DNA of 64,000 bases from a bacterium (GTDB lineage: Bacteria; Hydrothermota; UBA3073; JACQXS01; JAQTXJ01), in the NCBI GenBank assembly GCA_041649255.1, contig JBAZNK010000004.1, positions 28,647 to 92,646 of the forward strand, read 5' to 3'. The notes beneath the pieces are model-generated. The model did not search any database and was not told where the DNA came from. It worked only from the letters and a program-made list of their open reading frames with translations. Each line of letters starts with the position of its first letter. The first letter of the stretch is position 1. Position numbers and translations under genes: made by a program. Below, piece by piece: positions 22,539-46,394 of this stretch.

Positions 22539-22922
22539 TCTACCTCCTTCACTTCATTCGGGATATTTACCAGCCATTACCCAAAAGCTTCTAATCCCTT
22601 ACTCCATTTATTTTAAGAATTCCCTTCTTAAAACCATTGCTATGTTTCTTGCTATTTCATCTATTTCAGATGTATTATATAAATCAGTTACTGATTTATT
22701 CTGAATCGTTTTACACCTCTTTGCTACTTTTTTACCGTATTTCTTTTCTCTTTTTTTGTTTCCGTTCATAAATCCTCCATAGCTAAATATCTATATGTAT
22801 TATAGTATAGCAAATTCCGTGTCAAATGTAAAACTCTATAATTCATAGGGATTTCGACAATATATGCAATATGAGATATGAACATTCCCTCCTATTACAG
22901 CTAATTTTCTGCCCATTGTTTA

Positions 22923-39474: not shown

Positions 39475-40683
39475 TTAACTTACATATGCTTCTTTATTCC
39501 ACTCCCGCATAGTTTCTATTATACTGCTTGCGCGATGGACATAAGTATGTTCCTGTAAAACTCTTTGTCTTGCTTTTTTTGCAATCTTTTTTCTTTCGGT
39601 TGAATGCTGAAGATAAAAGTTAACCAGTTCTTTTAATTCTTCCTTATCCTTGAAAGTTATTACCTCTTCTTTTGGAATAAACAAATCAATCAAAGTCTTA
39701 CGTTCATCCGTAATAAGAAACCCGCCCGCAGCAGGAACATCAAATACCCTTTGATTACATCCCTCCGGCATTTGAAAACTTGTAATATTTAAATTTATTT
39801 CACTCCCGTTATAAACCAAAGGCAATTGAGTGTAATAGTTTACGGCAGGCAACAATGTTACGTTCTTGAAAAGTTTATGCCAACCCGTATCTCCATATAT
39901 TCTTAATCCACAAGATAAAATATTCTCCAAGACTTCTTGTCTTTTGTTAAACGTAGCTTTTAATGCAATATAAGACTCAAGTTCAGTTAATTTTCCATTA
40001 TCAATCGGCAATTTTAATTCCAGAGTTTCAGATATTTTTTTCAATGCTTTGCCTGAGAAAATTCCACTTTTATTATGTAATAATTTTAAGGTTTCATCAG
40101 ATAGTTTTTCCCATTCATTAATATTAGAGACTTTCTTTTTCCACTTATCAACTGATTCTATCATAGAATCTCCAACAAAGCTTATATCCGTTACATATTT
40201 ACCGGGTATATTTTCCATTAGTTTAAATATTTCCGGGTCAGTTCCAAGAGGTAAATACTTAACTTTTTTAAATCCTGATTCTTGAAGTTCAGAAACATAC
40301 AAAGGGTCCCACACAAATACGTTGGCATAAGGAGAAACGTTTTCTTTGTCATAACCTTCAAGAATATATCTAGGGGAATCTACATACCATATTGCATACG
40401 GAATCTTTAACTCGGTTAACAATCCCGTAATTTTCCCTTCACAGTCAAACCCCTCGTGGTTTACGGTGAATATGAAATCCGGTTGAAATTCACATAACGT
40501 AACCAGAAGTTCTTTTAGGAAGGTATCTTTCTTGTTAACAGTTATTTTACGAACTTCGCAGCCAAGTCTTTCAAATGCAGTAGCGCATTCTTTGACAATA
40601 TAATAATCCCATTCAAATATAACTATCCTTGTCTTATTTCTTTTGAATTTTGCATAAGATGTTGCGGATTTAATCTTTTGCAT
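39475..40683 (-). CDS. CgeB-like (DUF3880/Glyco_trans_1_2) glycosyltransferase-like protein
   Basis: 402 aa; C-terminal motif KIAKKARQRVLQEHTYVHR typical of CgeB-family proteins. Confidence 0.5.
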   Translation of the reverse strand: MQKIKSATSYAKFKRNKTRIVIFEWDYYIVKECATAFERLGCEVRKITVNKKDTFLKELLVTLCEFQPDFIFTVNHEGFDCEGKITGLLTELKIPYAIWYVDSPRYILEGYDKENVSPYANVFVWDPLYVSELQESGFKKVKYLPLGTDPEIFKLMENIPGKYVTDISFVGDSMIESVDKWKKKVSNINEWEKLSDETLKLLHNKSGIFSGKALKKISETLELKLPIDNGKLTELESYIALKATFNKRQEVLENILSCGLRIYGDTGWHKLFKNVTLLPAVNYYTQLPLVYNGSEINLNITSFQMPEGCNQRVFDVPAAGGFLITDERKTLIDLFIPKEEVITFKDKEELKELVNFYLQHSTERKKIAKKARQRVLQEHTYVHRASSIIETMREWNKEAYVS

Positions 40684-40693
40684 CGCTCATATT

Positions 40694-41752
40694 TCAGACT
40701 TTGCAGGAAATTCCGACTTTACTTATTACTGCTCTCAGTTTTTGAAATTCCTTTTTAGGATTGAAATGTGTTTTTATATAAATCTTACCATCTTCTACTA
40801 ATTCTCTCCTTAGGTTCTCATCATTCAAAACTCTTTTTATCTCTTTTACCCATTTATCCGGATTTAAGAAATCATCTATTAATATGGCGCCCGGTCCAGC
40901 AGCTTCAGGGATTCCACCTATTCTTCCTGCAACTACAGGTATTCCATTAAGCAAAGCTTCTACAATTATCATACCAAAAGTTTCTCCTATTACTGAAGGG
41001 ACAACTAATAATTTAGTAGTAGAATAAAAATATTTCGGAGGAGTATATCCCATATATCTTACATTTGGAAGTTTAAGTTTTATTCCATGTCCTACAGTTA
41101 AAAACTGTTCTTCCGGCATTAATCTGGCAATTTCACAAAAAGTTAAAATACCTTTACGGACTTCAGGCTGATACATAGTAATATACTTCTGAGGTACAAA
41201 TATCTCCTCGCATATGATTTCATCATAGTTGATAAACGGATAAATCACTTCCGAATCCATATTTGTAAACTCTTTTAACACCTGTCTTGTATATTCGGAA
41301 TTTGATATAATAGCATCTGCCTGTTGAAGCATCTCACGATTTCTTACAAGCGTAGTTTCATACAAATTGTAATAATTACAGTTTTTACAATTTCTGTCAC
41401 ATATTTCTGCATATAAGGGCACATGACAGAAATAATCCATACCATGAACAAAAAGAACTACCGGAATGTTTAACCTTTTGGCGATACTGACTGCAAAGGG
41501 AGCAAGATCAAACTGCGTAAATATGACATCCGGCAATAAAGTTTCTATACTTTTTGTAAGACTTAGCAATTCGCTAAAAGTATTTACTGTTACACCATTT
41601 TTTTCCACTTTTCTGCTTCTATTCTTTTCAATACAAAAAGCATAGGTATCAAATCCTTCCTCGCTTAAATGCTCAAGCAATGTTAAACTACTTTTTTCTG
41701 CACCTCTTAAAGGAGGATACAAATCGTGTGCTATGAATAATATTTTTTTCAT
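40694..41752 (-). CDS. GT4 family glycosyltransferase (GT-B)
   Basis: 352 aa; GETFGMIIVEALLNGIPVVAGRIGGIPE nucleotide-sugar binding motif. Confidence 0.75.
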   Translation of the reverse strand: MKKILFIAHDLYPPLRGAEKSSLTLLEHLSEEGFDTYAFCIEKNRSRKVEKNGVTVNTFSELLSLTKSIETLLPDVIFTQFDLAPFAVSIAKRLNIPVVLFVHGMDYFCHVPLYAEICDRNCKNCNYYNLYETTLVRNREMLQQADAIISNSEYTRQVLKEFTNMDSEVIYPFINYDEIICEEIFVPQKYITMYQPEVRKGILTFCEIARLMPEEQFLTVGHGIKLKLPNVRYMGYTPPKYFYSTTKLLVVPSVIGETFGMIIVEALLNGIPVVAGRIGGIPEAAGPGAILIDDFLNPDKWVKEIKRVLNDENLRRELVEDGKIYIKTHFNPKKEFQKLRAVISKVGISCKV

Positions 41753-41938
41753 TTATTCCTAATGCCTTTTTTAAATCAGCAAGTTCCGTGTCATTTATTA
41801 AAATATTCTGAACTCTCTTATATCATAAACATTTAAAGCTTTATTTAAAATACAAAAATATTTTCAATGTGGAAAATATTTCCTATCTAATAGGCAAAGA
41901 ACTAACTATTTTTTAATCACAAGAATGGATTATTAAAA

Positions 41939-42208
41939 ATGCTTGACTTTTTAAATATTAAGATTAATTGTTTTAACAGAATGGCGATTATCAAGAGAGA
42001 TAAGATTATAATTGAAGGTGAAGAAAATATAGGACTATCTCCTTCTCAACAGTCTATTCCTGTAGATACCCCGAATAATACAGAGTTAAAGGAGCCCGGG
42101 ATAAGTATAAACAAAGCAAATGGCATAGTTAACAGTATAGACATATTATGTACTTGTGGGCGTAAGATTCATATAGATTGTGAATACGAGGAAAAACCAA
42201 AAGCATAA
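41939..42208 (+). CDS. Small hypothetical protein with C-terminal Cys/His cluster, divergent from the modification island
   Basis: 89 aa ORF; ...ILCTCGRKIHIDCEYEE; no family assignment possible by eye. Confidence 0.3.
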   Translation: MLDFLNIKINCFNRMAIIKRDKIIIEGEENIGLSPSQQSIPVDTPNNTELKEPGISINKANGIVNSIDILCTCGRKIHIDCEYEEKPKA

Positions 42209-42263
42209 TTAGAAAATAGAAAAATAGGACATCCCGCTTTGACGGGTATCTGATAAATCCTTT

Positions 42264-43520
42264 ATGAATAATAATTATAAAGTTCTTGTTTATGATTCCT
42301 CTTACGAAGTATGCAACACGCTAAAGAATATTCTAAAAGATTTTAATTTCGAAATAGTAGAGTGTACAAATGTAAAAGATTTTTTTAAGTTTCTTGAAAG
42401 TATATTTTTTAATATCGCCTTTTTTGACACAGAAAACAAAGATAAAATCGAGATAGATATTTTTCAGAAATTTAAGATGGCTATGAATCCTGATATAAAT
42501 ATTATTTTAACATCTACAGTTCCCAAAGTTGAAATTGCAATTCGCGGCATTAAGTTCGGAATTTTAGATTATTTAACAAAACCTCTTAATAAGAAAGAAG
42601 TGTTGGAAAGCGTAAATAAAGTAGTGAACAAAGAACAGCCTTTTGAGAGAACCGGGTTGGGTTTATTAATAGGAGTTTCTCCAAAAATGCAACAACTTTA
42701 TTCTGAAATCTTAAATGTCGCTCCAACAAACTCCACAGTATGCATTCAAGGAGAAAACGGGACCGGCAAAGAATTGATAGCCCAAACCATTCATAATCTT
42801 TCCCTTCGTAAAGACGCGAACTTTATACCTGTAAATTGCAGTGCCATTCCTGAAAGCCTGCTCGAGACAGAATTATTTGGTCACGTAAAAGGCGCATATT
42901 CCGGAGCATCTCGCGATAATCCTGGCATTTTCAGGGCAGCCGAAAAAGGAACCATATTTCTTGATGAAATAGCAGAAATACCACACAGCATTCAGATAAA
43001 ACTCCTAAGGGTTCTTGAAGAAAAAGAAGTCAGATCTATTGGAAGCGCCCAGAATTATAAAATTGATTGTCGCATTATTACAGCTACAAACAAAGATCTT
43101 GAAAGAGCCGTTTTACAAGGAAAAATAAGAGAAGATTTTTTCCATAGACTGTTTGTCGTTTCTATAATAGTCCCTCCGCTTAGAGAAAGAAGAGAAGACA
43201 TTCCCCTTCTAATTGAACACTTCTTAATTTTAACCAAGGGACAAAATAAAAAACAGATTTCGGACGAAGTTCTTGAAGCTTTATGCTCTTATGATTGGCC
43301 CGGAAACGTCAGAGAATTAGAAAACGTGATAGAAAGCGCTTGCGTTACAAGCAGCAGTAATAGTTTAATCAAACTAACCGATATTCCCTTAAAAATAAGA
43401 GGAAGCAAAGGATTCATGCCAAATCGAAAATCTGTTTTATGGGATGACACACAAAAAAGCCTCATTCAAAGGACACTTGCCCAAACAGGCACAACAAACT
43501 CAAAACTGCAAAACTACTAG
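42264..43520 (+). CDS. Sigma-54-dependent response regulator (REC + AAA+ sigma-54 activator; NtrC/FlgR/FlrC-like); the C-terminal Fis-type HTH is in another frame (43490-43606)
   Basis: REC residues (D10, D55, T/S ~82, K ~104); Walker A GENGTGKEL; GAFTGA-type motif (GHVKGAYSGA); ESELFGH-like; the ORF stops just before the HTH NKLKTAKLLGIDRKTLYRKLKRYKI, which is readable in the frame offset by 2. Confidence 0.8.
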   Translation: MNNNYKVLVYDSSYEVCNTLKNILKDFNFEIVECTNVKDFFKFLESIFFNIAFFDTENKDKIEIDIFQKFKMAMNPDINIILTSTVPKVEIAIRGIKFGILDYLTKPLNKKEVLESVNKVVNKEQPFERTGLGLLIGVSPKMQQLYSEILNVAPTNSTVCIQGENGTGKELIAQTIHNLSLRKDANFIPVNCSAIPESLLETELFGHVKGAYSGASRDNPGIFRAAEKGTIFLDEIAEIPHSIQIKLLRVLEEKEVRSIGSAQNYKIDCRIITATNKDLERAVLQGKIREDFFHRLFVVSIIVPPLRERREDIPLLIEHFLILTKGQNKKQISDEVLEALCSYDWPGNVRELENVIESACVTSSSNSLIKLTDIPLKIRGSKGFMPNRKSVLWDDTQKSLIQRTLAQTGTTNSKLQNY

Positions 43521-43792
43521 GCATAGATCGCAAAACATTATACAGAAAACTCAAAAGATATAAAATAGTATCTCCATCACCCCAGACACAAGACACAACA
43601 CAATAAACCAGCACAAAAACAAAACAACCCAATCAAAATAAACTACACATTAAACACACTCAAAATACCCCAACACAAACAAAATCAACCACAATAGTGT
43701 AGCATAAAACTACACCCCAAAACCCCTAACCAACAACACAAAACAACACAGCGTCAATTCGCTACACCACACTGTCGCTCAATGCCTCAGTG

Positions 43793-44005
43793 TGGCAAAT
43801 TGACATATAGGAACAAAATGCCACATTGTAACATAAGGCAAAAAGCCACACCTCGGGATTATTTATCATCACAGTAAAATAACTCAGGGGTATATTGCTA
43901 CACTAGACTGTGGCTAAATAGAACATTGGGGCAAATTGACATATGAGAACAAAAGCCACACCGCAAAGTAAGGCAAAAAGCCACACCTCGAGACTGTTTA
44001 TTATC
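43793..44005. repeat. Two ~75-bp direct repeats (period ~138 bp) with recurring GCCACA/TGTGGC motifs inside a CA-only intergenic region; candidate enhancer (UAS) elements
   Basis: GGCAAATTGACATAT[A/G]GGAACAAAA..GCCACA...TAAGGCAAAAAGCCACACCTCG[G/A]GA.T.TTTAT at 43795-43870 and 43933-44008; long-range inverted repeat GGGGCAAATTGACA (43935) / TGTCAATTTGCCCC (44052). Confidence 0.6.
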
Positions 44006-44150
44006 CTATTAATACAACTTAGGGGTAAATCGCCACATATAGTTGTGTCAATTTGCCCCTGTGGTTATTTAGGACATACTGATTTGTATGATGATGTAAC
44101 TATTTGTTGGGTGTGGGTTTTAGGGTATTAGTGTGAATAATTTTGTATAT

Positions 44151-44165
44151 TGGCACATTTGTTGC
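44151..44165 (+). promoter_or_regulatory. Sigma-54 promoter (TGGCAC-N5-TTGC) upstream of the second activator gene
   Basis: TGGCACatttgTTGCTATTATAATAT; exact -24/-12 consensus; lies inside the track ORF start (44143), so the real start is ATG 44182. Confidence 0.55.
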
Positions 44166-44181
44166 TATTATAATATCTACT

Positions 44182-45231
44182 ATGGCAAAATTAACGGAAT
44201 TATTTTCTGAATTTAACGTTGCTGCAGAACGATTAGAAGGGGCTTACAAGGTTTTACAGGAGAAGGTTGAGCGTGCAAACCTATCCTACGGTTTTGGACC
44301 TCTTGTTGGAAGAACTGAAGGGATGAAGGAAATATACGAGATAATTCGTGCAGTTGCAAAGAGTAGAGCTTCGGTTTTGGTATATGGGGAGTCCGGGACC
44401 GGAAAAGAACTTGTATCAAGAGCAATACACTACGAGAGTAATTGCAAAGATAAACCTTTTATTTCCATAAATTGTGCGGCTATTTCCGAGGGGTTGTTAG
44501 AAAGCGAGCTTTTTGGTCATGAGAAAGGAGCTTTTACCGGAGCATTAGAAAAAAGAAAAGGGAAATTTGAACTTGCCAATGGAGGGACATTACTTCTTGA
44601 TGAAATTTCAGAGATGGGACTTATGCTCCAGGCGAAATTACTTCGTGTATTACAGGAATTTAGGTTTTTTAGAGTAGGCGGTTCCGAAGAAATAAAAGTA
44701 GATGTGAGGATAATTGCCACAACAAACCTTAATCCAAAAGAAGCTATTGAAAAACAAAAACTCAGAGAAGACCTTTTTTACAGGTTAAACGTAGTGAGCG
44801 TTAATATTCCACCATTGAGAGAAAGAAAAGAGGATATTCCTGTTCTTGCGGCTTATTTTTTAAGGAAATATTCCACTTTTTACAATAAACAGGTAAATTC
44901 CATCTCAACAGATGCATTAAAAATTCTTTTAAATTATAACTGGCCTGGAAATGTAAGAGAACTTGAAAATGTAATAGAGAGGGCAGTGATTCTTAATTCT
45001 TCTCCCTCGGTTCTCACTTCACATCTCAATCTTTCCAATAACTCAAATGATGTGCAATTAAACGGACTTATTGGATTATCTTTAGATGAAATAGAAAAGA
45101 AAGTTATTATTGAAACATTAAAAAAGAATAATGGGAACCGGACAAATACTGCTAAAATGTTAAAAGTAAGTATCCGGACAATAAGAGAAAAAATCAGGCA
45201 ATATAAAAAAGATGGGGAAATAATTGACTAA
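44182..45231 (+). CDS. Sigma-54-dependent transcriptional activator lacking any receiver/sensor domain (PspF-like: ~40-aa N-terminal helix + AAA+ + Fis HTH)
   Basis: GESGTGKELVSRAIH Walker A; GAFTGA (EKGAFTGAL); ESELFGH; intact C-terminal HTH (NRTNTAKMLKVSIRTIREKIRQY). Confidence 0.8.
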   Translation: MAKLTELFSEFNVAAERLEGAYKVLQEKVERANLSYGFGPLVGRTEGMKEIYEIIRAVAKSRASVLVYGESGTGKELVSRAIHYESNCKDKPFISINCAAISEGLLESELFGHEKGAFTGALEKRKGKFELANGGTLLLDEISEMGLMLQAKLLRVLQEFRFFRVGGSEEIKVDVRIIATTNLNPKEAIEKQKLREDLFYRLNVVSVNIPPLRERKEDIPVLAAYFLRKYSTFYNKQVNSISTDALKILLNYNWPGNVRELENVIERAVILNSSPSVLTSHLNLSNNSNDVQLNGLIGLSLDEIEKKVIIETLKKNNGNRTNTAKMLKVSIRTIREKIRQYKKDGEIID

Positions 45232-45315
45232 TAGGTGGAGTTTTTTGCCTATTGTAAAAAAAAGTAGTTTTATGAATTTATTATTTTATATACCTATTAT
45301 AGGTAGTGTTAATTT

Positions 45316-45330
45316 TGGCACGAAATTTGC
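45316..45330 (+). promoter_or_regulatory. Sigma-54 promoter (TGGCAC-N5-TTGC) of the flgB operon
   Basis: TGGCACgaaatTTGCTATTATAAATAT, 19 nt upstream of the flgB ATG; same downstream TATTATAA(A)TAT box as the 44151 promoter. Confidence 0.6.
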
Positions 45331-45348
45331 TATTATAAATATATTACA

Positions 45349-45759
45349 ATGAATAGTATTTTTAACGATATGGGTTTTGGCGCTACAAAAAAAGGGTTGG
45401 ATGTTAGCGCTTTGAGAAACAAGGTAATTGCCCAGAATATTTCAAATGTCTCAACGCCGGGATATTCTTCGTCAAAAGTAAAGTTTGAAGAGCTTCTTGA
45501 CGAAAAACTCGGGTTCAAATTATCCGGGACACGCACAAATCAAAGTCATCTACCCGTTGGCAGGGCAAATAACGAAATTAACAACGTAAATCCCTTAGTT
45601 GAAACATCAACTGATCCGATTCCGGCTGGGAAAGTCAACAACATAGAGATAGACAAAGAAATAGTTTCGCTTGCAAAAAATTCTTTAGATTGGGATACGT
45701 ATGTTAATTTGATTTCTTTCAAATATAGGCTTTTAACGCTAAGTATAAGAAGACAATAA
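45349..45759 (+). CDS. flgB: Flagellar basal-body rod protein FlgB
   Basis: 136 aa; N-terminal rod motif (LDVSALRNKVIAQNISNVSTPGY). Confidence 0.85.
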   Translation: MNSIFNDMGFGATKKGLDVSALRNKVIAQNISNVSTPGYSSSKVKFEELLDEKLGFKLSGTRTNQSHLPVGRANNEINNVNPLVETSTDPIPAGKVNNIEIDKEIVSLAKNSLDWDTYVNLISFKYRLLTLSIRRQ

Positions 45760-45783
45760 CAAAAATAAAACGGAGGTTATTAT

Positions 45784-46287
45784 ATGGGATGGTTTCCGGG
45801 AATTGACATAAGCGCGTCCGGGCTTTATGCGCAGCGTGTCAAACTAAATCAAGTAGCAAACAATATTGCAAATATAAATACGACCCGTAGTTTTTCGGGT
45901 GGACCTTATCGCAGACACGAGGTTTTATTGAAATCGGAAGATAATTTTTCGCAGCATCTTAGTGGACTGGAAGCTACACAAACGCCTCTTTCTTTGACAC
46001 ATCCTCGTCATATGCCATCGCTTGACGCTATGGGATCAGAATCCACACGGCAAAGACAAGGCGTAGCAGTAGATGAAGTAACTGAAGATACCGTAACTCC
46101 CTTTAAGACGGTATATAATCCTTCTCATCCGGATGCAGATAAGGATGGTTACGTAAAATTACCGAATGTAGACATTACTAAAGAACTTACGGATATGGTA
46201 ATAGCCAAAAGGGCTTACGAAGCAAATGTTGCATCAATTAATGCGAGTAAATCAATGGCAAGAACAGCACTTGACATAGGGAGATAA
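45784..46287 (+). CDS. flgC: Flagellar basal-body rod protein FlgC
   Basis: 167 aa; SASGLYAQRVKLNQVANNIANINTTRS N-terminus and conserved C-terminus (IAKRAYEANVASINASKSMARTALDI). Confidence 0.85.
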   Translation: MGWFPGIDISASGLYAQRVKLNQVANNIANINTTRSFSGGPYRRHEVLLKSEDNFSQHLSGLEATQTPLSLTHPRHMPSLDAMGSESTRQRQGVAVDEVTEDTVTPFKTVYNPSHPDADKDGYVKLPNVDITKELTDMVIAKRAYEANVASINASKSMARTALDIGR

Positions 46288-46394
46288 AAAGAAATGCAAA
46301 TTTTAGATTCTAGACTTTGCCTGCCTGCCGGTAGGCAGGGATTTGGGATAAGTACGATCTCGGCATCCACCTTAGGTGGAGATAGGAGGGTTAA

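Follow-up and report, generated by a model that had tools for sequence, protein, structure and literature searches.

Enhancer-binding proteins (EBPs) that naturally do without a DNA-binding domain (DBD) include CtcC of Chlamydia. Among flagellar regulators, H. pylori FlgR is naturally DBD-less and enhancer-independent, and C. jejuni FlgR has a C-terminal domain that is dispensable (PMC3930126). These proteins set a precedent for DBD-less flagellar activators made of a receiver (REC) and an AAA+ domain, which can activate the sigma-54 holoenzyme from solution (PMC3930126). In C. jejuni, flgR and flgS also phase-vary, through single-base indels in homopolymeric A/T tracts (PMC3930126).

The window examined here, i.e. 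the whole 64,000-nt stretch of DNA that was analyzed, is one large flagellar locus, with flagellin, fliS, and fliD genes, a glycosylation island, two sigma-54 activator genes, and the genes from flgB through fliR. Neither a histidine kinase gene nor an rpoN gene is found among its annotated ORFs. The first of the two activators resembles NtrC-family EBPs (AtoC, ZraR, NtrC, FlgR, FlrC, and FlbD) in its REC, sigma-54 AAA+, lid, and Fis-type helix-turn-helix (HTH) modules in the ancestral frame, and in the perfect sigma-54 promoters close to it; it differs from them in its GAYSGA loop and in an HTH that is out of frame in this strain. Its best NCBIfam similarities are to AtoC, ZraR, and NtrC (~320–330 bits) and to FlbD and FlgR (~250 bits). 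None of the NCBIfam equivalog cut-offs is reached, and for this reason we do not treat it as an ortholog of any named regulator.

Judged from its sequence, the encoded product is also similar to H. pylori and C. jejuni FlgR, as a flagellar-associated REC and AAA+ protein that appears to have no functional DBD. In H. pylori, however, the absence of this domain is an evolved architecture, whereas here we find a young 1-nt deletion, intact HTH codons, and intact orthologs in sister genomes. The likeness to H. pylori FlgR thus appears to lie in the truncated product only and not in the architecture of the gene. We propose, with a probability of roughly 0.75, that the gene is a frameshifted allele, specific to this strain, of an NtrC-family response regulator of 447 aa (REC, sigma-54 AAA+, and Fis-type HTH), and that a genuine and recent 1-nt deletion has produced this DBD-less and probably hypomorphic allele. 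On this reading, the frameshift is of an ordinary sort, young and strain-specific, and does not define a new class of regulator.

Domains of the regulator and their reading frames

The regulator ORF as encoded ends in ...LAQTGTTNSKLQNY*, and Pfam matches Response_reg, Sigma54_activat, and AAA_lid_14 in its product, with the HTH absent. The frame starting at 43490 translates to HNKLKTAKLLGIDRKTLYRKLKRYKIVSPSPQTQDTTQ*, and it is open and intact over 39 codons directly behind the shift site. Joining the two frames after Gly409 brings up a match to HTH_8 (PF02954) at residues 395–433 with 49.4 bits (E = 3.6e-13), which, against a Pfam cut-off of 22 bits, is far above a chance resemblance. The joined ORF has 447 aa, as do both intact orthologs. 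The first-pass annotation of this DNA had reported a frameshift that parts the Fis-type HTH from an NtrC-like regulator, and both what it described and the positions it gave are borne out. The stranded HTH frame has no start codon of its own, and no ORF of at least 30 aa is listed in that frame; separate expression of this domain was rejected because the start codon is missing.

Upstream of the shift, the receiver has a putative phospho-acceptor, D55, together with T83 and K106, and its acidic pocket is the pair D11–S12. The AAA+ domain has a Walker A motif (GENGTGKE) and a Walker B motif (FLDEI). The regulator therefore has the Walker motifs and the PF00158 match that define a sigma-54 activator, as well as the receiver with a phospho-acceptor Asp that defines the NtrC family. 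An in-frame C-terminal Fis-type HTH is missing from the 418-aa ORF and is present in frame in the orthologs P0001 and P0122. The sigma-54 contact loop reads GAYSGA (not GAFTGA) in the window and in both orthologs, and GAFSGA in P0002, a more distant homolog; on sequence grounds, GAYSGA looks like a conservative variant of GAFTGA. Given that the intact orthologs share both the GAYSGA loop and the D11–S12 pair, we read these as lineage traits and not as damage.

A single missing base and its age

A protein search with the joined sequence retrieves P0001 (447 aa, 94% identity, 100% coverage), whose 90% cluster has 3 members, i.e. P0001, P0122 (447 aa), and the product of the window itself (P0121). 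The two intact genes belong to the metagenome-assembled genomes (MAGs) STC_131 (L004; contig JAQTXJ010000020.1, 93.8% nucleotide identity to the window) and STD1_36 (L001; contig JAQUPX010000003.1, ~87% nucleotide identity). In both relatives an uninterrupted 447-aa ortholog is followed by the same genes as in the window—i.e. the 349-aa second sigma-54 activator, flgB, flgC, fliE, fliF, fliG, fliH, fliI, fliJ, and onward. A scan of genome contigs for further relatives yielded these two intact ones only, and in JGI metagenome contigs neither a degenerate DNA pattern across the deletion nor a protein-based scan gave a match. A placement through CysS gave, besides relatives recorded as 'bacterium', matches of ~55% scattered over a wide range of phyla.

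At the break site, the relatives read GGC/T AAC AAC/T AAA CTC (G N N K L), vs GGC -AC AAC AAA CTC in the window. The alignment shows that exactly one base is missing, an A of codon 410, by which the ancestral GGC-AAC-AAC has become GGC-AC-AAC (deleted allele, GGCACAAC; intact allele, GGCAACAAC). The first-pass annotation had placed the shift within an ACA/CAA mini-repeat, and its position is here corrected to the AA of codon 410. The comparison with orthologs that it had suggested thus finds two close relatives intact at 447 aa, each with one A more than the window, and its expectation that a restored base would yield a single 447-aa ORF holds exactly: with the A put back, the protein has 447 aa, of which 441 are identical to P0122 (six residues differ).

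Table 1. Coordinates of the regulator gene, its domains, and the deletion site in the window
Feature	Position	Strand	Basis or remark
Truncated NtrC-family sigma-54 activator ORF (EBP1), 418 aa	42264..43520	+	Same product recorded as MFA5032182.1
Receiver (REC), residues 7–117	42282..42614	+	PF00072, 36.5 bits (cut-off, 30.2 bits); residues read off the sequence
Sigma-54 interaction AAA+ domain, residues 135–301	42666..43166	+	PF00158, 215.6 bits; motifs read off the sequence
AAA+ lid, residues 307–382	43182..43409	+	PF25601 (AAA_lid_14), 86 bits
Coding sequence of the Fis-type HTH (HTH_8), interrupted by the deletion	43446..43561	+	HTH_8 in the joined protein and codon table
HTH helix 1	43446–43490	+	Within the ORF frame
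HTH helices 2–3, including the recognition helix	43491–43561	+	Out of frame
Deletion site: one A missing between GGC (codon 409) and the AC remnant of AAC (codon 410)	43490..43491	+	DNA alignment with L001/L002; codon comparison with L004 and L001
Last 9 residues of the 418-aa product, TTNSKLQNY		+	Out-of-frame junk
Premature TAG in the shifted frame	43518..43520	+	ORF translation
Stranded 3' end of the ancestral gene	43491..43606	+	43491–43492, remainder of codon 410; codons 411–447 from 43493; TAA at 43604–43606

The frame of the gene is thus disrupted relative to intact orthologs, as is typical of a frameshift pseudogene. Like ordinary bacterial frameshift pseudogenes, it has one frame-disrupting indel and a premature stop 9 codons on. 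It differs from them in that 92% of the protein remains encoded, with every catalytic module retained, and in that no secondary decay can yet be seen.

Given this disruption, we compared the three genes (window, L004, and L001) codon by codon, with the missing A restored. Before the break (409 codons), the window lineage has 26 synonymous changes of its own and 0 nonsynonymous ones, which corresponds to a rate of ~0.09 per synonymous site. Over the 26 HTH codons 410–435, the window differs from L004 by 2 synonymous and 0 nonsynonymous changes and from L001 by 7 synonymous and 0 nonsynonymous changes, and none of these is specific to the window lineage. The expected number of changes in these 78 nt is ~7 if the region had gone without translation ever since the divergence from L004, and ~1.6 under continued purifying selection. 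As a rough likelihood estimate, zero changes would date the deletion to about the more recent half, at most, of the window branch since that divergence. Neither relaxed selection nor secondary lesions after the disruption are visible in the 26 HTH codons, and the lesion appears too young for visible decay.

Because all HTH differences are synonymous and none arose in the window lineage, the deletion appears to be young and the HTH appears to have been under selection until recently, which argues that the lineage is not an evolved DBD-less one. The same evidence bears on the idea of a lineage-typical, enhancer-independent activator of the H. pylori FlgR or Chlamydia CtcC type. Such a regulator would agree with the flagellar context and with an encoded product of REC and AAA+ only, as in FlgR, but the HTH-coding DNA is present and unblemished. 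In addition, HTH_8 is found in the orthologs at 94% and 87% nucleotide identity and in the next relative, P0002, at 59% amino acid identity, and PF02954 is present in 119 of the best 120 homologs listed. We therefore find this explanation scarcely credible.

Sequencing error, phase variation, and recoding

A sequencing or assembly indel would mean that the organism truly has the 447-aa gene and that one A was lost in the consensus. This would be in line with the metagenome-assembled origin of the genome, with a single inserted base restoring the exact orthologous length, and with the perfect preservation of the HTH codons, which an artifact would predict too. However, in the Logan assembly of run SRR8542065, an independent k-mer assembly, the locus lies on a 24.6-kb contig (L003), from which a stretch of 6,561 bp was retrieved that matches window positions 39784–46344 with 100% identity, deletion included, and the gene call on this contig gives the identical 418-aa product. 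The 418-aa protein is on record from NCBI, JGI/IMG, ENA, and Logan, with the truncated allele as the only one for this strain, although the NCBI, JGI, and ENA records may all represent one and the same 198-kb contig. The deletion site is also no homopolymer (AA to A).

Other genes likewise speak for the quality of the assembly. For all 23 other L004 and L001 ORFs that match the window (11 distinct called genes, together with antisense ORFs and ORFs that occur in both relatives), the alignment stays in one frame, in nearly every case at full length (~16 kb in total), and the rest of the 64-kb window is dense in coding sequence, with long ORFs, coherent Pfam assignments, and no second split gene. 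As comparable ORFs keep one frame and no other gene in 64 kb is split, the data argue against an indel-prone assembly, although a single indel per 64 kb, taken alone, is not statistically separable from a low assembly error rate. The NCBI and Logan contigs may share one read set, in which case a systematic read error would recur in both, and because of this we keep a small residual probability for an error in the reads or consensus. Among the three options offered by the first-pass annotation, a real and recent truncating mutation is now best supported; a sequencing indel is unlikely, given that the independent assembly of the raw reads has the same deletion, and a naturally DBD-less activator is, as a lineage trait, contradicted by the orthologs with an HTH.

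Another conceivable reading is a reversible deletion, as in a contingency switch of the C. jejuni flgR type, where indels would switch the regulator from its full-length to its truncated form and back. The gene is indeed an NtrC-type regulator of a flagellar locus, and the C. jejuni flgR and flgS precedent (PMC3930126) is close in that a single-base coding indel truncates a flagellar sigma-54 regulator. In that species, however, indels fall in tracts and revert at high frequency, whereas the site in the window is a 2-nt AA outside any repeat tract. The sole homopolymer in the region, A6 at 43453–43458, is unchanged, and both relatives are in the ON frame. Phase variation is thus very improbable here.

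Even less probable is programmed recoding, by which a −1 ribosomal frameshift or transcriptional slippage would still make the full-length HTH protein. The HTH frame, which stays open over the 39 codons that follow the shift site, would allow it, and a −1 shift can join the two frames solely between 43448 and 43517. Within this permissible interval, however, there is no in-frame X_XXY_YYZ heptamer, the downstream RNA folds no better than shuffled sequences (z = −0.58), and the orthologs encode the protein in a single frame; frameshifting of the dnaX type is, on these three counts, essentially refuted. Transcriptional slippage at A6 was also rejected, because this run is not long enough and because 11 conserved residues of helix 1 (SLIQRTLAQTG) would be replaced if the frame shifted at that point.

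Promoters, second activator, and predicted effect of the deletion

Two perfect sigma-54 promoter matches (TGGCAC-N5-TTGC) are present downstream of the regulator gene, at 44151–44165 before the second EBP gene and at 45316–45330 before flgB. Only 17 nt separate the former from the ATG (44182) of the second activator, and 19 nt the latter from that of flgB (45349), so that the leaders would be very short and could not accommodate a normal Shine-Dalgarno sequence. The former promoter is invariant in both relatives, and the latter differs in L004 by one substitution (TGGCAT). Just upstream of the flgB promoter is a conserved palindrome, TACCTATTATAGGTA.

The second activator (44182–45231, + strand) has 349 aa from the ATG at 44182; the TTG at 44143 given in the ORF list lies upstream of the promoter of this gene. 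The protein lacks a receiver and any other sensory domain, and consists of ~40 N-terminal residues, an AAA+ domain with the canonical GAFTGA, and HTH_8. Its best NCBIfam similarity is to FlbD, below the cut-off, and its protein sequence is 100% identical to that of STC_131, although DNA identity across the loci is 94%.

Between the two activator genes, a tandem repeat of ~135 nt (43740–44060) is found in two full copies and a partial third. It contains the 12-mer GGCAAATTGACA three times (43794 +, 43930 +, and 44046 −), these being its only copies in 64 kb, and none of 100 shuffles reaches three. The repeat is kept in both relatives. Because the 12-mer copies lie 95–360 nt upstream of a sigma-54 promoter, the repeat is a plausible candidate for the enhancer (UAS) of one or the other activator. 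The 447-aa protein is probably a flagellar NtrC-type activator that would normally bind an enhancer such as the GGCAAATTGACA repeats.

Under the preferred reading of a genuine deletion, a single A would have dropped from codon 410 of a regulator gene at the head of the flagellar gene cluster, and the lesion would be real in the sampled population. Translation would exit the HTH frame after helix 1, append nine junk residues, and halt at the TAG. The product is predicted to retain the receiver (D55, T83, and K106), the Walker motifs, the GAYSGA loop, and the lid, to lose HTH helices 2–3, and to be unable to bind an enhancer. At best, it may be a weakened activator acting from solution, like engineered or natural DBD-less EBPs; at worst, the gene could be a null allele en route to a pseudogene. 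By analogy with such proteins, we would expect a hypomorph rather than necessarily a null.

It is improbable, in our estimate, that the truncation is not only real but fixed and tolerated or favored, with the 418-aa protein still activating sigma-54 flagellar promoters from solution. If true, the strain would represent a natural snapshot of the first step from an HTH-bearing ancestor to a DBD-less activator of the H. pylori FlgR type, with the intact sister genomes as built-in controls for that step. More generally, provided that the deletion is genuine and the protein functional, one could regard the three sister genomes as a small natural experiment on the dispensability of the DBD in a flagellar EBP. 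For annotation, the point is more immediate. The public record labels the 418-aa product an ordinary sigma-54-dependent regulator, though it is frameshifted and has no recognition helix, and the allele deserves a flag when the flagellar regulatory circuit of this uncultured lineage is inferred.

Several other features were observed around the regulator gene. Directly upstream is an 89-aa ORF (41939–42208, + strand) without a Pfam or NCBIfam match, which is called in the relatives too (72–106 aa), and a GC-rich hairpin, CCCGCTTTGACGGG (42233–42246), separates it from the regulator ATG. An A/C-rich, G/T-poor tract of 341 nt (43440–43780; A164 C102 G29 T46) extends over the 3' end of the regulator gene into the sequence that follows. 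Its core (43600–43750) has only 4 G and 15 T in 151 nt. The GC skew is about −0.64. The same composition follows the orthologous stop in both relatives, where the sequence has diverged. The tract could be a C>G region of the Rho-utilization type or unstructured RNA, and an Rfam scan of 43300–44300 gave one sub-threshold chance match only.

The regulator gene is separated from the flagellin and fliD genes by an island of ~30 kb (11.9–41.7 kb; 11900–41750), which encodes TPR-glycosyltransferase fusions and radical-SAM enzymes, including giant radical-SAM/B12 proteins of 1375 and 1657 aa. At the same position, STD1_36 (L001 1–9420) has genes of the NeuB, aminotransferase, and CMP-sugar type instead, so that this island, presumably one for flagellin glycosylation, differs even among close relatives. 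A pair of almost identical sigma-54-like elements, TGACACGGAA(T/C)TTGC, with GA in place of GG at −24, is located at 22810–22824 (−) and 41779–41793 (−). Both lie upstream of minus-strand genes of the island, one of them 27 nt before the ATG of a glycosyltransferase gene (40694..41752), and they could represent a shared promoter.
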